Shown: positions 5,681 to 48,884 of the stretch, piece after piece
How the letters are laid out: each line of letters opens with the position of its first letter
Position numbering within the stretch: position 1 is the first letter of the stretch
From: an uncultured bacterium
Lineage (GTDB): Bacteria > Electryoneota > AABM5-125-24 > Hatepunaeales > Hatepunaeaceae
Direction of reading: 5' to 3'
Length of the DNA: 57,119 nt
NCBI GenBank assembly: GCA_964484805.1
Contig: CAZAGU010000001.1
Location: 1 to 57,119 of the forward strand
The notes under the pieces: model-generated
What the model was told of the DNA's origin: nothing
Database searches by the model: none
What the model saw: the letters and a program-made list of their open reading frames with translations, nothing else
Position numbers and translations under genes: made by a program

Positions 5681-7426
5681 ATGAGTGATAATAACTCAAA
5701 CGAAGACGGCAAGATAAATGAGGGTGAAAAATCGGAGCGAAGTGCTCCCGGTTTGGATTTCATCCGCACTAAGATTGAAGAAGACAACCGAACCGGCAAA
5801 TTCGACGGGAAAGTCATCACGCGCTTTCCGCCGGAACCAAACGGCTACTTGCACATAGGACATGCCAAATCCATTTGCCTGAACTTTGGCGTGGCTAAAG
5901 AATACAACGGCGTGACGCATCTGCGTTTCGACGACACAAACCCAAGCAAAGAAAACATCGAGTTCACGGAATCCATTATGGAAGATGTGCGCTGGCTGGG
6001 GTTTGAATGGGGCGAACGGCTTCACTACGCCTCCGATTATTTCGATCAGCTTTTTGCTTATGCCGAAGAGCTGATTAAGCTGGGCAAAGCTTACGTCTGC
6101 GATCTGAGCGCCGCTGAAGTGCGGGAATATCGCGGCACGTTGAAAGCCCCCGGTAAAAACAGCCCCTATCGCGAACGCTCGGTTGAGGAGAATCTCGACC
6201 TGTTCCACAAAATGCGCGCCGGGGAATTTGCCGATGGCACCAAGACCTTGCGAGCTAAGATCGACATGGCCTCGCCCAATTTGAACATGCGCGACCCAGC
6301 GATTTATCGCATCCGCCATGAACATCACCATCAGACTGGCGATAAATGGTGTATCTACCCGATGTATGACTTCGCACATTGCTTCTCGGATTCCATCGAA
6401 GGCATCACGCATTCGCTGTGCACGCTGGAATTTGAAGACCATCGCCCGCTGTACGACTGGTTTCTCGATCAACTTAAAGTGCATCACTCAGAACAGACCG
6501 AATTTGCTCGTTTGAATATTAACTACACCGTCGTCAGCAAACGCAAATTGCGCGAGCTGGTCGAGGCTGGAATTGTGAACGGCTGGGATGACCCACGAAT
6601 GCCAACGATCAAAGGCTTGCGGCGACGCGGCTACACACCGGAATCCATTCGTGTCTTTGCCGAAAAGATCGGCATCGCCAAGCGAAACAGCACAGTTGAT
6701 ATCGCATTGCTGGAGCATTGTCTCCGTGAAGGTTTGAACAAGACCGCCCGGCGATACATGGCTGTGTTGCGACCACTGAAACTGGTAATTGACAACTATC
6801 CAGATGATCTCGTCGAAGAGATGGACGCGGTGAACAATCCTGAAGACGAATCAGCAGGAATTCGCAAAGTGCCGTTCTCCAAGACGTTGTACATTGACCG
6901 TGCGGATTTCATCGAGAACCCGCCGCGCAAATTCTACAGGCTGTCTCCGGGGCGTGAAGTTCGCTTGCGCTATGCTTATTTCGTGATGTGTGGTGACATC
7001 ATCAAGGATGAAAACGGTGAAGTGACCGAAGTCCATTGCACTTACGACCCTGCTTCAAGGGGCGGAAATTCTCCCGATGGTCGCAAGGTCAAGGCTACGA
7101 TTCACTGGGTTTCGGCGGAACATTCCCTTCCGGCGGAAGTGCGACTGTATGACAAGCTGTTCACTGCCGAAAATCCGGAAGATGTCGAAGAGGGCGTGGA
7201 CTGGAAGAGCGCCATTAATCCGAATTCGCTGGAAGTGCTCACCGATTGCCGTGTTGAGCCGAGCTTGAAAGGCATCAGCCCGGAAACGACCTTGCAGTTC
7301 GAGCGGCAGGGATATTTCGTGGCTGACTGGCGAGATTCCACACCGGAAAAACTGGTGTTTAACCGCTCGGTTTCATTGAAGGACGAGTGGGCGAGGATTC
7401 AGAAATCTTCAGGCAAGAAAAAGTAA
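5681..7426 (+). CDS. glnS: Glutamine--tRNA ligase
   Basis: [17 protein letters not shown] (HIGH motif), VVSKRKL (KMSKS-type motif), the class-I GlxRS core, and the GlnRS-type C-terminal anticodon-binding beta-barrel region. Confidence 0.93.
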
Positions 7427-39007: not shown

Positions 39008-39901
39008 ATGATCGGCGCGATTATAGCATTAACATCGGTAGGATTGGGTTGCGGCGTTTTGATTTTAATCGTCAGCAGTGTTCTGCCACCCGAACCTGAA
39101 TCATTCCGCAAAGTTCAGGAATTGACCGAGCATTTGCCGGGTTTAAACTGCGGCGCATGTGGCGAAGCTGGGTGTTTTGCCTATGCTCAGGCATTGGTGA
39201 TTGATAAAGAGCACTTCAACGAATGCCCCTGTCCGGGTGTGTTGCAGGATGAGGACATGTTGGCGGCATTGCAGGAAGCACTTGACCTTAAGATTGACGC
39301 TTCAGCCATGGGCAAGAAGGCGTTTATTTCCTGCGCTGGCGATAATGAAATCATTGGTTTGTACAACGGTGTGAATTCCTGCAAGACCTCGGCGTTGCTG
39401 TTGCACGGCTTCAAACAGTGTCCTTTCGGTTGTTTCGGGCTGGGCGATTGCGCGACAGTCTGCCCGGAGGACGCCATCACCATTGATCCGAAGCTCCATG
39501 TGGCAAAGGTGGACTGGGACAAGTGTATAGGATGTGGCTTGTGTGTGATCGAATGTCCGCACAACCTGATAACGCTGGTTTCGTCGGACACCAAGCTGGC
39601 GCTGGCTTGCAGTTATCTGCCGATGCGGGACATTCCCGGTCGAGGCAAATGCGAGCGCGGCTGTCTGCACTGCCGCAAGTGTGTGCGAGCCTGTGACTAC
39701 GATGCCATCGAATGGGATAAAGACAAAGGCATTCCGATTTTCCACAGCGAGAATTGTGTGCTCTGTGGCGCGTGTATTGCGGTTTGTAATCCTGGAGCGA
39801 TTATCCAGACAACCGACGAGCCATTGCATCCTGAACTAATCAAAGAGAAGCCAAAGGCGAAACCGAAGCCTATAGCGAAAACCGCAACGGCAGAAGTTTA
39901 A
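39008..39901 (+). CDS. rnfB: Rnf complex subunit B (polyferredoxin)
   Basis: N-terminal TM segment. LPGLNCGACGEAGCFAYA (4Fe-4S/Fe-S N-domain), then CIGCGLCVIECP, CRKCVRACD and CVLCGACIAVCNP. AAGGAGG lies 8 nt upstream. Confidence 0.9.
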   Translation: MIGAIIALTSVGLGCGVLILIVSSVLPPEPESFRKVQELTEHLPGLNCGACGEAGCFAYAQALVIDKEHFNECPCPGVLQDEDMLAALQEALDLKIDASAMGKKAFISCAGDNEIIGLYNGVNSCKTSALLLHGFKQCPFGCFGLGDCATVCPEDAITIDPKLHVAKVDWDKCIGCGLCVIECPHNLITLVSSDTKLALACSYLPMRDIPGRGKCERGCLHCRKCVRACDYDAIEWDKDKGIPIFHSENCVLCGACIAVCNPGAIIQTTDEPLHPELIKEKPKAKPKPIAKTATAEV

Positions 39902-39915
39902 CTGGATTGCCTCGT

Positions 39916-39956
39916 AATAATCCCCTTGCTTTCATCAGGCAGGGGGATTATTTTTT
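39916..39956 (+). terminator. Rho-independent terminator after rnfB
   Basis: AATAATCCCCTTGCtttcatcagGCAGGGGGATTATT followed by TTTT. Confidence 0.78.
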
Positions 39957-40256
39957 AGCGATTCGGTCTAATTAGGGCTGATTTTTTTAGTCAGGATAAA
40001 ATCAAACATTTGGATTTTGTTTTCCGATTCTGGTTATATATATTTAATGGTCGTCAACTTGCCTTTAATGTGAAAGGACTTATGTTTAAGCTTGCACTCA
40101 TCATGGATCTTGCGAAATAAAGGTGGTAACTGGATACGTTCGTTAACTGACTCCGGTCCCCCCTGTTTCCTTGATCCCATTCCTTCAATCCGCCGTTATT
40201 TTTCGGTCGGATAGGGTTTTTATTGCCATTAATGGAAAAAATGCAGAGAGCAAGAA

Positions 40257-41327
40257 ATGTTTGAACTTTCATCCTTAGGATTTTCCCCCTTTTTTGAAAA
40301 CCAACTCGAAGACTCGACTTTAGACAAAAAACGACTCGCGCGGATCATAGCCGAACACCGCAACGAGTTCGAAACTCTTTCTATAGACGGAGCCGGAAAA
40401 GCACGCCTTTCCGGGCGGCAGCTCACTGAGCTCAAAGGTGAAATGTTGCCAAAAGTGGGCGATTGGGTGGTCTTGGATTTTTCAGATGAGATCGTCTTTA
40501 TCGAACGGGTACTCGCCCGGAAAACGTCACTGAATCGAGGTTCCGCGAGCAAAGAGGGCGTTAGCCAAGTACTGGCGACTAATGTCGATGTGGTTTTCAT
40601 CGTCGCGGGTTTGGATTTGGCGCTGAACCCAAACCGAATTGAGCGCTATCTGTCACTAGTCTGGTCGAGCGGCGCTATGCCTATTGTTGTGCTGAACAAG
40701 ACTGATTTAGTGGAGGATACTTCCGCTTTAAAACTCGAAACCGAAATCCATAGCCCGGGTGTAGATGTGATACTTGCCAGCTCGAAAACGACCGAGGGCT
40801 TGCAGGAAATCCATTCGCAACTGCGCCCTGGGATTACCGCGGCGTTTGTTGGGCCGTCGGGCGTGGGTAAATCGACCCTGATCAACACGCTGACCGGCAA
40901 AAACATGATGGACACCGGAGCAGTTCGTGGCGTGGATTCAAAAGGACGCCATACCACGGTTCATCGTCAGTTGATCGTGCTTCCCGATGGCGGCTTGGTG
41001 ATTGATACACCCGGATTGCGTGAACTGCAGCTTGTCGAAAGCGATGGCATTGCGTCGGTCTTTCCGGAAATTGAGGCTCTGGCTGACCAGTGTCGTTTCA
41101 GTGACTGCACGCATCAATCGGAACCCGGATGCGCGGTAAAAGATGGCATTGAGCGCGGTTTAATCAAGCCTGATCGCTATGAGCATTATCTGAAACTTCA
41201 GCATGACGCGCAATCGTTCGAGATGCGCCATGACGTGCATTTGCGCCGTCAATCCGAGCGCGTCTGGGGAAATATCTGCCGCGAAGGGAAGACGATAACG
41301 CGTTTAAAAAAAGGAATCCGCGGGTAG
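40257..41327 (+). CDS. rsgA: Ribosome small-subunit-dependent GTPase A (RsgA/YjeQ)
   Basis: Circularly permuted GTPase: VLNKTDL (G4) precedes GPSGVGKSTLINTL (G1). Zn-finger: CRFSDCTHQSEPGCAV. Confidence 0.93.
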   Translation: MFELSSLGFSPFFENQLEDSTLDKKRLARIIAEHRNEFETLSIDGAGKARLSGRQLTELKGEMLPKVGDWVVLDFSDEIVFIERVLARKTSLNRGSASKEGVSQVLATNVDVVFIVAGLDLALNPNRIERYLSLVWSSGAMPIVVLNKTDLVEDTSALKLETEIHSPGVDVILASSKTTEGLQEIHSQLRPGITAAFVGPSGVGKSTLINTLTGKNMMDTGAVRGVDSKGRHTTVHRQLIVLPDGGLVIDTPGLRELQLVESDGIASVFPEIEALADQCRFSDCTHQSEPGCAVKDGIERGLIKPDRYEHYLKLQHDAQSFEMRHDVHLRRQSERVWGNICREGKTITRLKKGIRG

Positions 41328-41479
41328 CGAATATTGCCGGGATTGGCTTCTGGAAATCCTTTCACAGGGTCGGATGGCGTGAAAATTTGTGTTGTCTGGC
41401 TCTGTGGATGGGTTAAAGGAAATCAACTTGCTCAATACAGATTTATCTTTAATGGTCACAAATTTCTCTGTGTGTTTTT

Positions 41480-42034
41480 TTATTCATTGAATTTTTTTAG
41501 ATACTTTTCCCGACAATAGTCGGGACATAAAAATTCCACGTTAATACCTTTTTCCTTGAGAGCGTCCTTCCAACCCCACCATTTGCTGTCAGTTGCTTGT
41601 AAGATGGGTGGTTTTTGGGGATGAGCGTTTGCCACTGCAACGAATTTGCGATCTGATAAATCAAAATCCTTTAACCCTTCGTGCATAGGAAATTCTTTAT
41701 AACTATCTCCTTGCTTTGTAATTTTTACACGGTAATCCTGTGGAAGTTGCCACCGAAAATCATGCACCAATTTTAGGAACATATCTCCGACGCCAGGCTG
41801 ACCTTGCAGGTTAAGTTTATGTCTATATTCATCATATATCTCGTTGCCTTCATCCATGACAAATGATTTATTATTTGAAACCTGTCGTATTGCCTCAACA
41901 CAATTTTCAATGCATTCAATTAATGACAAATCAGTAATATCATTGAGGTCTCTAACTTTATTCGCTGTGATAGGCACGTTAGTATCAACAACACACTTGG
42001 TTGGAAATTTAGCCATTTGCGTCCTCACGGGCAT
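41480..42034 (-). CDS. PIN-like domain protein (putative nuclease effector), partner of the upstream ATPase
   Basis: KCVVDTNVPITAN is the first PIN Asp motif. MDEGNEIYDEY and DLSDRKFVAVANA supply further acidic positions in PIN-like order. Its start (42034 or ATG 42016) overlaps the ATPase stop at 42009. AT-rich. Confidence 0.6.
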   Translation of the reverse strand: MPVRTQMAKFPTKCVVDTNVPITANKVRDLNDITDLSLIECIENCVEAIRQVSNNKSFVMDEGNEIYDEYRHKLNLQGQPGVGDMFLKLVHDFRWQLPQDYRVKITKQGDSYKEFPMHEGLKDFDLSDRKFVAVANAHPQKPPILQATDSKWWGWKDALKEKGINVEFLCPDYCREKYLKKFNE

Positions 42035-43424
42035 CTAAAATCTGTTGTTTCCTTCTACTTAAGGCTGCTTTTGATTGTTCTACGATATCGGTCATTTCAT
42101 CTCCGAAGAAGTCCTTTGGCCAATTTTCTATATTGCCGAACAGATCAATCTGAAGAGGAATTAATTTAGCTGGATGTTGTGTGGCATCAGCGAAATATGC
42201 CGCAACATCATCTTTCGAGATGGTTTCATCGGCGATTCTTCGCTGAATTCGTCTGAGAAAATGTTCGGAGTGAGTCTCAATAATCAATTGAACATTTCTA
42301 TCGTTATTATTTTCTCGAGCTTTTACAGCATCAATCATTACATCAGCCAGAGCAGATTGGGCGCTGGGGTGCAGATGAATTTCGGGTTGTTCCATTATAA
42401 TTATCGAATTCTTAGGAGCATAAAACACCTGAGTGATAACAGGAAGCACCTGTGAAACACCGAATCCAACATCAGGCAAACTCACATAAGAATTTGACCC
42501 TTTAGTTTTTAGTTTCACTTCATATTCGTGCCTTCCTTCCGCAATAGCTTTAACCTTAAAATCATCAATTATATTCATTTCTTTTAATTTTTTTGCAATA
42601 ACTTCACTAAATGATTTGTAACGCGTATTTTTTCCGAAATTAATCTTTCGATTTCTTGCTGCAAGAATTGCAGCTATAGTATTTTCTCCAGAATACCCGA
42701 CACTTTCTGGTTCATTGCCTGACCATGAATAAATCCGTTCTGTTTTTGTTCTTAGTGGACCTAAATAGAACATCGAGCCAAACATATTCTCGTGGTGAAG
42801 GTTTAGTCCTTTAACGAAATCTGCGTTTTGATGGTAGGCAACAAACTCATCAGTAAATCCATAAAATCGCATAGGATTTCCAAGATCCCATGGTCTTCCC
42901 TTTTGCCTGACTAACTTAAACTTTTCTTTATCGCATTCAGCTGAATAGTTCCCCTTGTTATCCTTGATATTCATGCCAATAGAGATCAAATCAATGCCTT
43001 CATCGTTGTAGAGTGTATAATTAAAATTGGCAACAGATAGTGCAGGTTTCTCCTTGTCTCTAAATTCAAGTGCAGATTCAAAAAGTAATGATTTCCCTTT
43101 GTATGGATTATTGGTTACTGGGTCTTTAATGGTCAATGACTCAGGCATATTCCATTTATATTGGAATTTAATGTCATTTTCTGTGTTTCGTTCAAAAACC
43201 ATTTCATTGAAGGAACCGAGTTGAACAGGGGAATTGTTTTCTCCGGGAAAGAGTACAGCTTTTCTGTCCGCAGATTCCACGGTTTGTTTCAGCATCATCA
43301 GGAACTGACCGATACTCGATTTTCCAGAGCTGTTTGTTCCGAAAAATATGGTGATAGGCGCTAAACGTATTCGACCTGTATCTTTCCAGATTTTAAAGTT
43401 TTGGATTCTTAGTTCGTTCAGCAT
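42009..43424 (-). CDS. ABC/SMC-type AAA ATPase with DUF3696-like C-terminal region
   Basis: LRIQNFKIW...ITIFFGTNSSGKSS (Walker A), YLGPLR, signature-like DVGFGVSQVLP, Walker B IIIMEQPEIHLHP, H-loop IIETHSEH, and C-terminal ...IENWPKDFFGDE. GGGAG lies upstream of the ATG. Confidence 0.82.
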   Translation of the reverse strand: MLNELRIQNFKIWKDTGRIRLAPITIFFGTNSSGKSSIGQFLMMLKQTVESADRKAVLFPGENNSPVQLGSFNEMVFERNTENDIKFQYKWNMPESLTIKDPVTNNPYKGKSLLFESALEFRDKEKPALSVANFNYTLYNDEGIDLISIGMNIKDNKGNYSAECDKEKFKLVRQKGRPWDLGNPMRFYGFTDEFVAYHQNADFVKGLNLHHENMFGSMFYLGPLRTKTERIYSWSGNEPESVGYSGENTIAAILAARNRKINFGKNTRYKSFSEVIAKKLKEMNIIDDFKVKAIAEGRHEYEVKLKTKGSNSYVSLPDVGFGVSQVLPVITQVFYAPKNSIIIMEQPEIHLHPSAQSALADVMIDAVKARENNNDRNVQLIIETHSEHFLRRIQRRIADETISKDDVAAYFADATQHPAKLIPLQIDLFGNIENWPKDFFGDEMTDIVEQSKAALSRRKQQILDAREDANG

Positions 43425-43452
43425 GAAAAACTCCCATGGTTAATTTATATTC

Positions 43453-43481
43453 ATTATAATCTTTGATCAAATCCATTACAA
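43453..43481 (-). promoter_or_regulatory. Candidate sigma70 promoter for the ATPase/PIN cassette
   Basis: On the minus strand: TTGTAA-N17-TATAAT, about 30 nt upstream of the ATPase ATG. Confidence 0.3.
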
Positions 43482-43669
43482 CTCTCTTTCTTGGTTAAAT
43501 TGATAGTTAGGTTATAATTTCTTTCCGATTGAAAATTTCTCCCGCCTTTTTCCCTTCATCTATTCCCGCAATGCCCCTAAAAGGTGCAAAATGGCTTTCA
43601 CCGTTGTATCTTATCTCACTTCAAACATCTGTAAAACAGATAGTACGTTCCTCAAACATCAAGTTACAA

Positions 43670-44428
43670 ATGCGAATTCTCATCTCCAATGACGACGGAT
43701 ACAGCGCACCCGGTATTCGGGCGCTTTACGATGCCCTGGAATCACTCGGCGAAGTCTGGCTCTCTGCGCCCGCCTCAGAGCGGAGCGGAGTCAGCCATTC
43801 CTTTACTATGCGCGATGTCCTGCGAGTTGATAATGTCGATTGGGTTGCAGGAGGTCGCGGATTTGCTGTTCATGGAATGCCCGTTGATTCCGTAAAACTT
43901 GCCATACGATCTCTGATGGATGGTATGCCGGATATCGTCGTGTCTGGAATCAATCAAGGTGAAAACACCGGCGTTGATCTGCTGTACAGTGGCACAGTCG
44001 CCGCCGCTATGGAAGGAGCAATACTCGGAGTGCCTTCAGTGGCAGTATCTTTGGCTTCCAAGAGGTATAATGATTTCTCAGTCGCGGCGAAATATGCCCA
44101 GCAGGTGGTTGAGCAGGTTTTAGCGCATGGCATCCCCAAGGGGAATTTGATCAATGTTAATGTTCCACCGTTATCATTGGCTGAAATCAAAGGCGTCCGC
44201 TTGACCAAGCAGGGTGCTTCGCGGTATATTGAACAAGTGAGATGTGAAAAAGGTAAAAATGGTGTCGATTGCCATTGGACTGAGTACCACAAGGAACTGA
44301 CCGAAGACGGCGCGGGCACGGATATAGAGGCGATACGCGATGGCTATGTCTCAATCACGCCAGTTCATGCGCGGATGACCGAAACCAGGATGTTGAAGAC
44401 GTTGGAAGACTGGGATTTTGGCGTTTAG
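43670..44428 (+). CDS. surE: 5'/3'-nucleotidase SurE
   Basis: MRILISNDDGYSAPGIRALYDAL, SGINQGENTGVDLLYSGTVAAAMEG. The ATG at 43670 is preferred over the listed 43529 extension. Confidence 0.93.
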   Translation: MRILISNDDGYSAPGIRALYDALESLGEVWLSAPASERSGVSHSFTMRDVLRVDNVDWVAGGRGFAVHGMPVDSVKLAIRSLMDGMPDIVVSGINQGENTGVDLLYSGTVAAAMEGAILGVPSVAVSLASKRYNDFSVAAKYAQQVVEQVLAHGIPKGNLINVNVPPLSLAEIKGVRLTKQGASRYIEQVRCEKGKNGVDCHWTEYHKELTEDGAGTDIEAIRDGYVSITPVHARMTETRMLKTLEDWDFGV

Positions 44429-44439
44429 TGTGGTAATTG

Positions 44440-44582
44440 CCTTTGTGCTGTTATCCCAACGAAGTCTGGGATCCGTAGCCCGGAAGCGACTGCATTCCGG
44501 GGCTAATAATTAACCGCCAAGGGCACAAAGGATTGTGTAGCTGGGGATGAATGCGATGGATACCTGCCTTCGCAGGTATGAC
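44440..44582. repeat. Cluster C of REP-like hairpins
   Basis: CCTTTGTGC...GCACAAAGG encloses TAGCCCGGAAgcgactgcaTTCCGGGGCTA. GAATGCGATGGATACCTGCCTTCGCAGGTATGAC at 44549-44582 is the reverse complement of the 4062-4095 unit. Confidence 0.65.
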
Positions 44583-44614
44583 ATTTAGGATTTAATGTTT
44601 AGATCGGAAATATA

Positions 44615-46159
44615 GTGTTGAAACCAGAAGAAACGGTTCTTATACTCGATTTCGGCTCACAATTCACCCAGCTCATCGCGCGAAGGTGTCGAGAGGAAGG
44701 TGTGTTCAGCCGCATTGAAGCTTGGGATTTGTCTCAAGCGGAAATCGAAAAGATCAACCCGATTGGGATTATCCTTTCGGGAGGTCCCAGCTCAACCTAC
44801 GATCAAGGCGCTCCCAGTCGTTGGGATGATCTGGTCGAGTTGAACCTGTCCATACTCGGCATTTGCTACGGGATGCAACTCATGACGCTGGGCAATGGCG
44901 GCAAGGTTGAAGCTTCGGCGCGCCGCGAATATGGCAGAGCGTTGGTCGAAGTCATTCAACCATCTCAGCTTCTGAAAGGTTTAACTGAAGCCGAGCAGGT
45001 TTGGATGAGCCATGGCGATCATGTTTCGGTGCCACCGCCCGGCTGGAATCTGACGGGAATGAGTGATTCGGGCATTGTTGCGGCAATCGAGAATCCCGAC
45101 CTTAAGTTCTATGGTGTGCAATTCCACCCTGAAGTAAGCCATACGCTTTCCGGTGATGTGATCCTCAGAAATTTCCTCTATGAAATATGCGGCGCCAAAG
45201 GTGGCTGGAATATGGGAGCCTTCGCTGAAAATGTTGTCGAAGAGCTTAAGATCATGATCGGCGACCGGAAGGTCATCGGGGCATTTTCTGGTGGCGTGGA
45301 TTCCGCTGTTGCCGCCACACTGGTTCATCAAGCTATTGGCGATCAACTGCGCCTGGTGCTGGTTGACAACGGGCTTTTGCGCAAAGATGAAGCCAAGCAG
45401 GTCAAAGAAGTTTTCGAGCCAAGATTTGGTGACAGTTTACATATTGTTGATGCCAGCCAGCAATTTTATGACGACCTCAAGGGCGTGGATGACCCTGAGA
45501 AGAAACGCAAGTTAATTGGCCATCGCTTCATCAAAGTATTTCAGGACGAAGCGAAGAAATTCACCGATGCAAAACTATTGCTTCAAGGGACATTATACCC
45601 TGATGTGATCGAGTCCTCACATTCTCGAGGTCCCGCCGCGGTGATTAAAACTCATCACAACGTTGGTGGATTGCCTGATTTGCTGGGTTTGGAATTAATC
45701 GAACCGCTTCGTGATCTATTCAAAGATGAAGTGCGTAAAGTCGGCAGGGAAATCGGCTTACCGGAACATATCGTTATGCGTCATCCGTTCCCTGGACCCG
45801 GCTTGGCTGTGAGAATTCTGGGAGCTTTAACACCTGAAGCTGTGAGAATCGTTCAGGAAGCCGATGCGATATTCATCGAAGAATTACGGAAATCCGGCTG
45901 GTATGAGCGGGTTTCGCAGGCGTTATCCGTGCTTCTGCCGATCAGGACGGTGGGCGTGATGGGCGATGCTCGAACTTATGACCAAGTTCTGGCGCTTAGG
46001 TCTGTGGACAGTCGCGACTTCATGACGGCTGAATACAGCCCACTACCGCATGATCTGTTGGCGAAAATTTCATCCCGCATTACTGGTGAAGTGTCCGGTG
46101 TCAACCGGGTTGTGTATGACATAACCTCAAAACCCCCGGCGACGGTGGAATGGGAATAA
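44615..46159 (+). CDS. guaA: GMP synthase (glutamine-hydrolysing)
   Basis: GATase: ILGICYGMQ and FHPEV. PP-loop: AFSGGVDS. C-terminal dimerisation domain ending PPATVEWE. GTG start. Confidence 0.95.
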   Translation: MLKPEETVLILDFGSQFTQLIARRCREEGVFSRIEAWDLSQAEIEKINPIGIILSGGPSSTYDQGAPSRWDDLVELNLSILGICYGMQLMTLGNGGKVEASARREYGRALVEVIQPSQLLKGLTEAEQVWMSHGDHVSVPPPGWNLTGMSDSGIVAAIENPDLKFYGVQFHPEVSHTLSGDVILRNFLYEICGAKGGWNMGAFAENVVEELKIMIGDRKVIGAFSGGVDSAVAATLVHQAIGDQLRLVLVDNGLLRKDEAKQVKEVFEPRFGDSLHIVDASQQFYDDLKGVDDPEKKRKLIGHRFIKVFQDEAKKFTDAKLLLQGTLYPDVIESSHSRGPAAVIKTHHNVGGLPDLLGLELIEPLRDLFKDEVRKVGREIGLPEHIVMRHPFPGPGLAVRILGALTPEAVRIVQEADAIFIEELRKSGWYERVSQALSVLLPIRTVGVMGDARTYDQVLALRSVDSRDFMTAEYSPLPHDLLAKISSRITGEVSGVNRVVYDITSKPPATVEWE

Positions 46160-46173
46160 ATTTAAGAGTGACA

Positions 46174-48063
46174 ATGAAGAAGCTATTCTATATCCTTGCA
46201 GTCTGCCTAATCCCGCTCATCTTTTCTACATCGACTACTGCTCAATCTAATACAAGATCGGTTTGGTTGTCAGACCAGCAGGCGATTGATGAAATCAAAG
46301 CTAATTTTAACAATCATGACTGGGATCGAGTGATTTCGAGCGGGGAAAAATTTCGCACAGCCTTCCCACGCTCCAAATTTAGCTCGACAGTAACGATTTT
46401 GGTGGCACAGGCGGCATTAAATATGCGCGATGTTGACCTGGCGCTCCTCGAAGTTAAGTTCCTCTTTCTGAAATATCCCAATTCAAAATACATTGACAAC
46501 GGCCGGATGGTGCTCGCTGAAGCGTCGTTGATGGCTGAGAAATGGTCTGAAGCCCGTGAGTATCTGAGCTGGATCGTCAGTTTCTCGACCGATGATAAGC
46601 TGGTAAAAACAGCCCGTAGCTGGCTGGATGAATTGGATCAGTATCTGGATCAATCGAGAATGCTCAGCCAGAAAGAAGATGATTTTAATAGTAGCGCCTT
46701 TAAGGTCAGTCTGGTGCTTCCGTTTACCGGCGCGGATTCAACGGCTACTAATGAATTCCAGCAGGGATTCAAGATTTACTGGGACAGCGCACATCTGGGC
46801 GAGTTAGAATACTTTGACACGGCGGATGATCCGGTGCGAGCTGCGCTTATCACTCAGCAGGCTATTCGTGAAGGCGCTTGGGCGATTGTCGGCGGGATGA
46901 ATCCATCCGAAGCTGCGACTTTAGCTTCAATTTGTGAGGCTGAGGAAACTCCTTTTGTAACCACCACTTGCCCGGTGGAAGGCGTCGCGGCTATTGGCAG
47001 AAATGTCTTTCAGGGCAGATCGGATTATGCTGTTATCGGCAGGAAATTAGCTCGCCATGCCATCTCCATGATGGGACTGGGGCAATTTGGCTTGCTGGTG
47101 CCGGGCAATCAGGAAGGTCGCCAGATAGCGAGGAGCTTTGAGCAAGATGCGGCAGAAGCTGGTGTTGAGATACTGGCTGAGGAATTCTATTATCCGGGAA
47201 CACAGGATTTTAAGACCTACTTTGCTCGAATGCGTCAGATTGGTTTACGCCGGGCTTACGATGACTCGCTGAAGACATTTTTTGCGGTGAACGGCTATCT
47301 GATGAAGGACACAACCTACGTCACAGAAGAGAAAGTAAGGGCATTTTACTTCGCTGACAGCATCAGGTGGATGGATCGGCTCCGGTATATTCCACTGGAC
47401 GTGTGTTTAGATTTGGTATTGCCACCGGAGGGCATTGAGCTTGAGCCAGATGAATTGCCCGGTTTGACGCTGTCGCAGAGCTTCCTCGACTCGCTCTGGG
47501 AATTTGACCACCGTCGCATTCGCGGCTGGATGGTTGAAAACAAAAAAGATGTTGATTCTCTGGAAATCCCCTTGAATATTTTTGATGGCTTTTTATTTGT
47601 GATTGAACCGGGCATGGTGCAGATGGTCGCACCTCAGTTTGCTCGTTCAAACATTAAAACGCAATTGCTTGGCAACGAGTCGTGGGGCGATGCCGAAGCT
47701 TTATCGAAGAACAGCGGTTATGTGGATGGTTTGATTTTTGCCGAACCGATTGCCGGAGTTGGCGGCGAAGAATACTACAAATTTGCCGAAGCGGTTGCTG
47801 GCGATAGCATGGCTGTCGTTTCGCCGTTTCACTTGCTTGGTGAACGAGCGGCGCGGATGATTGCATTTGGTGCGCGTCATGCCGCCAACAGAGCGGAAAT
47901 GCGTCAGGTGTTGTCGCAGATACGCTATTTGAAAACCCTTTCCGGCGAAGTCTCGCTTTTGAAAGAGGAGAGAGTGGATCGGAATGTGGAATTCAAGCAG
48001 TTTATAAATGGTCATGTCGAGACCGTCAGCGAGATTAGAGGTATGTTCAGCGCGCCGGAATAA
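46174..48063 (+). CDS. Secreted TPR-like + type-1 periplasmic-binding-fold (Leu/Ile/Val-binding/LpoA-like) protein
   Basis: Signal peptide: MKKLFYILAVCLIPLIFSTSTTAQ. Helical-repeat N-domain. Then KVSLVLPFTG...AIVGGMNPSEAATLASICEAEETPFV...GLLVPGNQEGRQIARSF, typical of the Peripla_BP_6 fold. Confidence 0.68.
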   Translation: MKKLFYILAVCLIPLIFSTSTTAQSNTRSVWLSDQQAIDEIKANFNNHDWDRVISSGEKFRTAFPRSKFSSTVTILVAQAALNMRDVDLALLEVKFLFLKYPNSKYIDNGRMVLAEASLMAEKWSEAREYLSWIVSFSTDDKLVKTARSWLDELDQYLDQSRMLSQKEDDFNSSAFKVSLVLPFTGADSTATNEFQQGFKIYWDSAHLGELEYFDTADDPVRAALITQQAIREGAWAIVGGMNPSEAATLASICEAEETPFVTTTCPVEGVAAIGRNVFQGRSDYAVIGRKLARHAISMMGLGQFGLLVPGNQEGRQIARSFEQDAAEAGVEILAEEFYYPGTQDFKTYFARMRQIGLRRAYDDSLKTFFAVNGYLMKDTTYVTEEKVRAFYFADSIRWMDRLRYIPLDVCLDLVLPPEGIELEPDELPGLTLSQSFLDSLWEFDHRRIRGWMVENKKDVDSLEIPLNIFDGFLFVIEPGMVQMVAPQFARSNIKTQLLGNESWGDAEALSKNSGYVDGLIFAEPIAGVGGEEYYKFAEAVAGDSMAVVSPFHLLGERAARMIAFGARHAANRAEMRQVLSQIRYLKTLSGEVSLLKEERVDRNVEFKQFINGHVETVSEIRGMFSAPE

Positions 48064-48104
48064 TTTTCGAGATGCGAAATTTGCGTAAATTTGGAGAGTA
48101 ATTA

Positions 48105-48884
48105 ATGACTCCTGTGCAGGGGGCAATAATGGGGGTGGTGCAGGGGCTGACTGAGTTCCTGCCGGTTTCATCGAGTGGTCATCTGGCGGTGGCGAGGCAT
48201 CTTTTGCACGCTGGTCTGGCAGAGGATGTTGGGTTTGAAGTAGCGGTGCACCTCGGGACTCTGGTTGCTGTGCTGATTTTCTTCCGCCAGCGTATTATCA
48301 GCATCTTTTCCGAGGCGCTCAAGGGCGGTAAAGAAGGCTTGAACTGGATCGGCTACATTGTCATCGGCACGATTCCTGCTGGTGTGGTTGGCTTGATGTT
48401 TAAGGATCAGATTGATGAATTGTTTAACGACATTCATCTGGTAGGGATTGCCTGGATATTCACTGCCATCATTTTATTCGCATCAGAACGGTTTGGCAAG
48501 CCGAAAGTCGCGGTCAGTCAGATGGGGTACTTGCGAGCTTTCACGATTGGCTTGGCGCAGGCGTTGGCGATCATTCCCGGCATTTCACGCTCTGGATCGA
48601 CCATTGCCGCCAGCATGGCGACTGGTGTCAAGAAGGAAGGTTCTGTAGATTTCGTGTTTATCTTATCATTACCAGCAATAGGCGGCGCGGCGCTGTTGAC
48701 GATCAAGGACTGGATGGATGGCTCGGCGGGGTTTGGTATCGAGCATATCCTTGGTGGAATCACCGCGGCGATTTCCGGCTATTTTGCGATTGCTATAATG
48801 CTGAAAGTTGTTTCTGGCGGCAAGCTGTTCTGGTTTGCGGCTTATTGTCTGGTTGCTGGCGTGGTGACGGTTATTTTGGTGTGA
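48105..48884 (+). CDS. uppP: Undecaprenyl-diphosphate phosphatase UppP/BacA
   Basis: GLTEFLPVSSSGHL, PGISRSGSTI, 7-8 TM segments. Confidence 0.93.
   Translation: MTPVQGAIMGVVQGLTEFLPVSSSGHLAVARHLLHAGLAEDVGFEVAVHLGTLVAVLIFFRQRIISIFSEALKGGKEGLNWIGYIVIGTIPAGVVGLMFKDQIDELFNDIHLVGIAWIFTAIILFASERFGKPKVAVSQMGYLRAFTIGLAQALAIIPGISRSGSTIAASMATGVKKEGSVDFVFILSLPAIGGAALLTIKDWMDGSAGFGIEHILGGITAAISGYFAIAIMLKVVSGGKLFWFAAYCLVAGVVTVILV

Follow-up and report, generated by a model that had tools for sequence, protein, structure and literature searches.

What is a pair of AT-rich minus-strand genes, encoding an ABC-type ATPase and a small protein with PIN-like acidic motifs, doing between the housekeeping genes rsgA and surE? 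The pair lies in a 57,119-nucleotide stretch of DNA from an FCB-group bacterium (the window, by which we mean the whole stretch that was analysed). A first-pass annotation, made from the letters alone, had proposed an uncharacterised defence or toxin system. Our analysis indicates that the cassette very probably, as judged from its sequence, belongs to the HEC-03 family of anti-phage defence systems, as a member that was acquired horizontally and stands alone. The ORF (open reading frame) list places rsgA and surE on either side of the following two genes:

42009..43424, minus strand: HEC-03 ABC ATPase with a DUF3696 C-terminal tail, 471 amino acids (ORF, Pfam, PADLOC, BLASTP, Foldseek)
41480..42016, minus strand: HEC-03 PIN-like putative nuclease, 178 amino acids (PADLOC, BLASTP, AlphaFold 2 model)

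The identification rests on the HEC-03 models of PADLOC-DB v2, which match both proteins over nearly their full length. The ATPase aligns to PDLC04148 with an E-value of 2.6e-134 (residues 1-460; profile positions 1-454 of 458) and the PIN-like protein to PDLC04147 with an E-value of 2.4e-29 (residues 13-174; profile positions 2-155 of 159). PDLC04147 is the sole PADLOC match of the PIN-like protein. The second-best match of the ATPase, NsnB (4e-65), is far weaker than PDLC04148, and its scores on the AriA, AbiLi, GajA and PtuA models are much lower than on the HEC-03 model. The genes also stand in the HEC-03 order, with the ATPase first, both on the same strand and an 8-nucleotide overlap between them. 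The first-pass annotation had recognised no named system that pairs this type of ATPase with a PIN-like effector, and had listed a match to such a system among the outcomes that would count against its proposal; the two HEC-03 models provide that match.

HEC-03 stands for Hma-embedded candidate 03, an ABC ATPase and a PIN-domain protein found in Hma systems (Payne et al. 2024, bioRxiv 10.1101/2024.01.29.577857). The same study expressed the pair from Pseudomonas cichorii ATCC 10857, whose locus lies on NZ_FNIK01000005.1, in Escherichia coli, where plaque formation by at least two phages fell by orders of magnitude; both genes were needed for defence, and the system was toxic upon induction with isopropyl β-D-1-thiogalactopyranoside (IPTG). 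The tested construct had two genes and no ligase, and its sequences are given in Table S2 of that work. In BLASTP comparisons with the P. cichorii proteins, the window ATPase shows 41% identity (E = 3e-102, over the first 399 residues, which were available) and the PIN-like protein 37% identity (E = 1e-23). The pairing of ATPase and PIN-like protein is therefore not new, as HEC-03 had already been named and was shown to be active in 2024, and the word uncharacterised has to be withdrawn for a system whose homologous pair protects against phage in experiments, with both genes required. A 2026 preprint likewise treats the activity of HEC-03 as demonstrated and its mechanism as still undescribed. 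What the window adds is a new, divergent, ligase-less member of the family. No larger defence system surrounds this copy, whose neighbours are all housekeeping genes; embedding is the context of discovery and is not required by PADLOC. The names of the two components are inverted between sources: in PADLOC, HEC-03A is the PIN-like protein and HEC-03B the ATPase, and in the paper HEC-03A is the ATPase and HEC-03B the PIN protein.

By its motifs and its ABC head fold, the larger protein is an ABC/SMC-type ATPase of the AAA_15 / OLD-ABC branch. Pfam reports AAA_15 (6.8e-29), AAA_21 (1.6e-18) and, at residues 402-449, DUF3696 (1.7e-10), which bears out the C-terminal tail that the first-pass annotation had named; the tail as a whole spans residues 402-471. 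In an alignment of 25 family members, the invariant motifs are GxNSSGKSS (Walker A, with Lys35), YLGPLR at the Q-loop position, GFGxSQ, hhhMEQPEIHLHP (Walker B) and ETHSEH (H-loop). The layout of Walker A, signature-like motif, Walker B and H-loop that had been read from the single sequence is thus complete and holds across the family. Three positions deviate from the usual ABC motifs, with GFG in place of SGG, Arg at the Q-loop position and Gln346 at the position of the catalytic Glu. Gln occupies this last position in 24 of the 25 members and Lys in the remaining one; the codons for E345-Q346 lie at window positions 42387-42392. In experiments, replacing Glu by Gln at the Walker B catalytic position serves to lock ABC ATPases with ATP bound. 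The AlphaFold model of the ATPase is of moderate quality, with a predicted local distance difference test score (pLDDT) of 72.5. Its nearest solved structures in Foldseek are Septu PtuA (4.9e-09) and the ATPases of retrons Eco8, Eco7 and Ec78, followed by the Rad50, RecN and SMC heads, with E-values in the list ranging from 4.9e-09 to 1e-06. These neighbours agree with the class of ATPase-plus-nuclease defence systems to which the pair had been assigned.

The small protein belongs to a large and closely conserved family, with 2362 homologues of 175-183 amino acids and, in a separate profile search, 1347 clusters at 50% identity; homologues of the ATPase number at least 8,000. Its AlphaFold 2 (AF2) model has a pLDDT of 92.3 and a secondary-structure order that matches the PIN pattern. 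The five best fold matches in the PDB are all PIN-like (1y82; HARP/PRORP 7e8k three times; SMG6 2hwx) and are weak, with E-values of 0.28-0.64 and template modelling (TM) scores of 0.30-0.40. Foldseek of the same model against the viral structures of BFVD returned nothing informative, and a profile search of the PDB sequences with the family gave a chance match only (E = 1). The window protein itself has no Pfam match, PIN families included. Among family members the only recurrent Pfam family is PIN_3, found in 4 of 30 and then in 12 of 57 in a more divergent set.

Acidic residues follow in PIN order along the chain: D11 in VVDTNV, E63, D122 in SDRKFVAVA and D143 in ATD. D55, E63 and D122 do not vary across 57 divergent members, in which conservation of D11, D119 and D143 is at least 90%; the elements (D/E)TNV, E63, SDRKFxAxA and TD143 are kept down to 35% identity. 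The window and P. cichorii proteins have these acidic residues in common, except that D11 is Glu in P. cichorii. We infer that the conserved acidic residues correspond to the canonical PIN positions. Payne et al. aligned the HEC-03 PIN protein to VapC 6A7V and claimed similarity to VapC (bioRxiv 10.1101/2024.01.29.577857), and a PIN assignment of the small protein, in agreement with that published similarity, is probable. Of the earlier description of this protein as PIN-like, the conserved acidic motifs and the PIN-like character of the top fold matches stand; fold and Pfam scores (E = 0.28-0.64 and sub-threshold, respectively) do not lend it statistical weight. Two other candidates were set aside. 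In an exhaustive profile search with the family, which listed the best 150 matches, the top match (P0246, 3796 amino acids) is an unrelated repeat protein. An apparent ATPase-PIN fusion (P0378, 479 amino acids) is probably a frameshift or gene-calling artefact, its DUF3696 segment being out-of-frame Arg-rich sequence.

Scanning one genome per species for the PIN-like protein gave 80 loci, which span Desulfobacterota, Myxococcota, Planctomycetota, Chlorobiota, Nitrospirota, Acidobacteriota, Spirochaetota, Pseudomonadota and others. The ATPase gene lies immediately 5' of the PIN-like gene on the same strand in all 80, with a tight or overlapping junction throughout, and the two genes are therefore syntenic wherever the pair was surveyed, as the first-pass annotation had asked to be checked. 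Twenty-seven of the 80 loci sit inside BREX type 1 systems, bounded by PglX or BrxC on the upstream side and by BrxHI or PglZ on the downstream side, and 22 of these 27 have BREX genes on both sides. BREX-located examples are L003-L008, L012, L020, L022, L025-L027, L030, L033, L034, L045, L056, L066, L067 and L074, among others. Neighbours at the loci outside BREX include MADS mad3, AriA-like and PtuA-like genes, type I methyltransferases and restriction-modification (RM) genes, and a prokaryotic Argonaute (pAgo). Further copies are carried by conjugative or mobilisable plasmids of Aeromonas, Azotobacter, Rhodococcus and Tistrella, beside AbiEii and Hok/Gef modules.

How did such a pair come to lie among housekeeping genes? 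The GC content of the cassette is 37.8%, compared with 47.9% for the remaining window (z = -4.2), and is the minimum among all equal-length stretches of the window; the AT-richness that had earlier been judged by eye is thereby put on a computed footing. GC at third codon positions (GC3) is 0.33 in the cassette and 0.52-0.63 in the six neighbouring genes. The AT-rich island of about 2.3 kb has sharp edges near 41300 and 43600:

41300..43600, no strand: low-GC island with sharp edges, presumed horizontally acquired segment (composition, synteny)

A smaller second GC dip (0.42) is seen at window positions 39750-40250, inside the gap of about 355 nucleotides between rnfB and rsgA.

The closest named relatives of the window GuaA are those of Candidatus Hatepunaea meridiana (69% identity) and Calditrichota (67%), which places the host in the FCB group. 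A relative with a 72% identical GuaA has the order Amidase_3-SurE-GuaA-PBP-BacA (PBP, periplasmic binding protein) and no cassette. Window positions 43670-48884 are syntenic with positions 7184-12644 of L134 (SurE-GuaA-PBP-BacA), and the synteny ends at the 5' end of surE. The relatives found through GuaA have a different gene upstream of surE, so that they define a synteny breakpoint only. Horizontal acquisition of the cassette is supported by this break together with the change in GC content, the orientation on the opposite strand and a distribution that is patchy among phyla. Around the island we found no flanking direct repeats, no genes for transfer RNA (tRNA) or other RNAs and no integrase. 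The region 40663-43765, including both junctions, is 100% identical in five independent metagenome contigs from other samples, and the arrangement is therefore not an assembly artefact. The lone 2.3-kb HEC-03 insertion among the housekeeping genes of a poorly sampled FCB-group lineage indicates that the system spreads and persists outside defence islands.

The relatives of the window pair also revealed a third gene. Of the 80 loci, 79 include enough sequence beyond the PIN-like gene, and in 74 of them a gene of about 225 codons starts 0-24 nucleotides after the PIN-like stop. Thirty-one examples were aligned; each one matches the RNA_ligase family of Pfam (PF09414; best 2.6e-34), and motif I (EEKVDGAN), FGEW and RAK do not vary among them. 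The nearest solved relatives are archaeal Rnl3-type ligases. Examples lie at 6522-7208 in L005, 6531-7211 in L010 and, on plasmids, 8927-9619 in L128, 7928-8629 in L129 and 5964-6563 in L130; an Aeromonas ligase of this kind is WP_182936412.1. Five of the 79 loci are cleanly without the ligase. In two further loci, both counted among the 74, the ligase is decaying beside intact ATPase and PIN-like genes, as a 37-residue stub in L050 (6522-6632) and as a gene split over two frames in L052 (about 6520-7210).

On annotated plasmids, nine of 12 copies have an "RNA ligase family protein" directly behind the PIN-like gene, and the three remaining copies, on Acinetobacter soli plasmids, have an HNH endonuclease in the position of the ligase. 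One of these (L131, plasmid pAS903-1-2, 4001-6658) is a distant variant with a 33% identical ATPase and the HNH endonuclease third; upstream of it are an N-6 DNA methylase and a 402-residue hypothetical protein, and its ATPase is annotated as two ORFs, possibly through a frameshift. When plasmid homologues of the ligase are ranked by closeness, the first nine are precisely those linked to PIN-like genes, and the ligase therefore forms a dedicated subfamily. No PADLOC model matches the ligase, and the word "ligase" is absent from the HEC-03 paper and its examined supplements (bioRxiv 10.1101/2024.01.29.577857). The linkage is undescribed in the literature searched, which did not extend to Burroughs & Aravind 2016 (PMC5062991), a paper that possibly covers it; the single paper in it that names both an RNA ligase and BREX (CoCoNuTs) means RtcB, an unrelated ligase. 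A near-universal ligase partner in the clade that is missing from the detection models and the original paper is a broader and possibly new point. In the window itself, neither a ligase nor a remnant of one was detected by tblastn (best E = 0.73) or by a full-sensitivity hidden Markov model (HMM) search in six frames.

Both window genes are preceded by good ribosome-binding sites. The following elements were read from the sequence or found by consensus scans:

42009..42016, minus strand: 8-nucleotide overlap ATGGCTAA containing the PIN-like start codon and the ATPase stop codon (sequence reading)
42022..42026, minus strand: Shine-Dalgarno sequence GAGGA, 5 nucleotides before the PIN-like ATG at 42016 (sequence reading)
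43431..43435, minus strand: Shine-Dalgarno sequence GGGAG, 6 nucleotides before the ATPase ATG at 43424 (sequence reading)
43453..43481, minus strand: candidate promoter-like sequence TTGTAA-17-TATAAT, 5' of the ATPase gene (consensus scan, 10/12 matches)
41316..41332, minus strand: candidate weak terminator-like hairpin and T-run, 3' of the PIN-like gene, overlapping the rsgA stop (consensus scan)

The longest form of the partner ORF, 41480..42034 on the minus strand, encodes 184 amino acids, the length given by the first-pass annotation. That ORF is present, and its start needs to be moved: the real PIN-like gene is almost certainly 41480..42016, minus strand, with 178 amino acids, because the database gene call for the identical protein (P0001) is 178 residues long, the homologues have 175-183, and a Shine-Dalgarno sequence (GAGGA) precedes the ATG at 42016 and none that at 42034. 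Translational coupling of the ATPase and PIN-like genes is plausible whichever start is used. Promoter-like sites are no more numerous in the region than in shuffled sequences, so TTGTAA-17-TATAAT is a candidate only. From the PIN-like stop, 152 nucleotides run into the convergent rsgA. Pfam identifies the flanking genes as RsgA (2.9e-50) and SurE (1.2e-63), in keeping with the earlier placement of two overlapping minus-strand genes between rsgA and surE. Farther out, RnfC/D/E/A/B lie on one side and GuaA, the periplasmic binding protein and BacA on the other.

How might the pair work? By likeness to what is predicted for its close relative Menshen NsnB, the working form of the ABC ATPase is probably a dimer or tetramer. 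By the same analogy, the ATPase would bind the PIN-like nuclease through the C-terminal DUF3696 helices and hold it silent. Variable inserts in the ATPase may sense a phage cue and so shift its nucleotide state; the Gln at the Walker B catalytic-Glu position suggests a slow switch and not a motor. Upon infection the nuclease would be freed or activated and would cut RNA, presumably leaving 5'-phosphate and 3'-OH ends, and this cleavage would halt growth or phage replication. Cleavage by PIN-like metallonucleases, PRORP/HARP and SMG6 among them, yields 5'-phosphate and 3'-OH ends, which are exactly the ends that ATP-dependent RNA ligases join. That the conserved ligase would join the ends PIN-like nucleases leave points to RNA as the target and to a role for the three-gene form in repair or self-protection. 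In most relatives, re-sealing of such ends by the co-transcribed ATP-dependent RNA ligase could render the response reversible or self-protective. No repair would follow cleavage by the window pair, as would also hold for the two-gene construct that was tested.

Going one step further, we tentatively suggest, with more doubt than confidence, that the published HEC-03 is the core of a three-gene module, in which an ATPase-gated PIN-like RNase is joined by a dedicated ATP-dependent RNA ligase that re-seals 5'-phosphate/3'-OH nicks. Encoded by the host and in many cases situated within BREX, such a module would work as an immune switch of RNA damage and repair; the window copy and the few further loci without a ligase would be natural no-repair variants whose activation is irreversible. 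The ligase linkage points to an RNA target and suggests a damage-and-repair mechanism for HEC-03 that can be tested.

Several observations weigh against reading the window cassette as an acquired and working HEC-03 system. Identity between its proteins and the validated P. cichorii pair is only 37-41%. Statistical support for the PIN fold is weak, with a best Foldseek E-value of 0.28 and TM scores of 0.30-0.40, and every Pfam PIN match is sub-threshold, the best (PIN_3, E = 0.002) falling under the gathering score. The contact between ATPase and nuclease is borrowed by analogy from AlphaFold 3 predictions for Menshen. Among RsgA relatives in metagenome contigs there is no clean empty site, the best being 43% identical and none lying near surE. 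Lastly, the copy has no ligase, which about 90% of its relatives possess, and stands outside any defence island, so it could be decaying or repurposed.

This last point leads to a rival reading, that the window copy is a non-functional remnant of the usual three-gene ATPase-PIN-ligase cassette after loss of the ligase. The gene is found in 74 of 79 related loci and has left no trace in the window in the six-frame HMM search, and its decay is seen elsewhere, in the L050 stub and the L052 frame split. Yet both window ORFs are intact and keep every family-invariant residue, the sequence is identical in five samples, good ribosome-binding sites are present and the validated P. cichorii construct is active with two genes alone, all of which makes a remnant quite improbable. 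The pair might instead be an addiction module resembling a toxin-antitoxin (TA) system, with the PIN-like protein as a VapC-type toxin and the ATPase as its neutraliser, persisting selfishly in the chromosome and defending against phage incidentally. The HEC-03 paper likens the PIN protein to VapC toxins and saw toxicity when the system was induced; the ATPase matches AAA_21, labelled "putative AbiEii toxin, type IV TA"; plasmid copies lie beside AbiEii and Hok/Gef modules; and the window copy is isolated among housekeeping genes. We nevertheless regard an addiction module as unlikely, given that protection against phage by the homologous pair reached several orders of magnitude and depended on both genes, that one third of the relatives sit inside BREX operons, which is a context of defence and not of plasmid maintenance, and that a 471-residue ABC ATPase is unlike any VapB antitoxin.

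A different objection concerns the small protein, which may not be a catalytic RNase. It might act on DNA like the FEN/Mut7-C-type PIN-like nucleases, or it might be a non-catalytic adaptor like the inactive PINs of Menshen NsnC. The sub-threshold fold and Pfam support for a canonical PIN would fit either version, as would the inactive, adaptor-like nature of Menshen's ATPase-bound PIN-like domains and the BREX and RM neighbours, which act on DNA. The acidic residues of the window family are, however, invariant or nearly so across divergent members, unlike those of the Menshen inactive PINs, the small protein has no second effector domain that it could serve, and a dedicated RNA ligase subfamily is linked to the PIN-like gene. 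We therefore consider a role other than RNA cleavage very improbable. An active HEC-03 defence pair, obtained by horizontal transfer and standing alone, remains our preferred explanation.

Comparison with HEC-03 as published shows homologous proteins, the same gene order, an overlap, the DUF3696 tail and the same absence of a ligase as in the tested construct. The window copy is a divergent member and differs in its host, an FCB-group bacterium (Calditrichota / Ca. Hatepunaea-like), and in its location, which is in neither Hma nor BREX nor any other defence island. The PIN-like protein of the window is longer by about 20 residues, and its clade usually carries the RNA ligase, which is not in the published definition.

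Menshen (NsnABC; Millman et al. 2022) is closely related through its ATPase. In a 2025 analysis, NsnB is described as an ABC ATPase that ends in DUF3696 helices, with Arg at the Q-loop position, GxG for SGG and a non-canonical Walker B; AlphaFold 3 predicts that it forms a tetramer in which the DUF3696 tails pair up and clamp the PIN-like N-domain of NsnC (PMC12065111). The PIN-like domains of NsnC are inactive adaptors (PMC12065111). The window ATPase is close to NsnB (PADLOC 4e-65), with the tail and the motif deviations in common, and the partner is PIN-like in both systems. In contrast to Menshen, there is no NsnA (DUF262/ParB) gene beside the window ATPase, the adjoining genes being surE and rsgA, and the window partner is a single domain of 178 residues with conserved acidic residues, whereas NsnC consists of an inactive PIN and a C-terminal toxin domain. 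The window system is thus not Menshen, but its ATPase is probably coupled to its partner in Menshen's way. HEC-03 is tied to Menshen by its NsnB-like motifs and its DUF3696 tail, which suggest one common mode of coupling between ATPase and PIN-like protein.

Septu (PtuAB), PARIS (AriAB), Gabija (GajAB) and the retrons Eco8 and Ec78 follow the same logic, in which an ABC/SMC-type ATPase controls a nuclease, and PtuA and the retron-associated ATPases are the nearest solved structures of the window ATPase (Foldseek E-values 4.9e-09 to 1e-06). The effectors of Septu, PARIS and Gabija are HNH or TOPRIM proteins and that of the window is PIN-like; in PADLOC, the small protein has no match to the cognate effectors of Septu, PARIS, Gabija or AbiL (PtuB, an HNH protein; AriB, a TOPRIM protein; GajA, a TOPRIM protein, with the helicase GajB; AbiLii). 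The DUF3696 tail, too, sets the window ATPase apart from these systems and the retrons, being specific to the NsnB/HEC-03 branch.

A functional likeness to the HEC-03 family, with its many BREX-lodged members, may be seen in the PrrC/RloC anticodon nucleases and the RNA repair proteins Pnkp/Rnl1 of phage T4, where an RNase regulated by an ABC ATPase resides in a system of the R-M type (for PrrC, type I R-M) and RNA ligation is the counter-activity. In PrrC, ATPase and nuclease form one protein, and the ends produced are 2',3'-cyclic phosphate and 5'-OH. The ligase that counters PrrC belongs to the phage, whereas that of the HEC-03 family, where present, is encoded by the host cassette itself.

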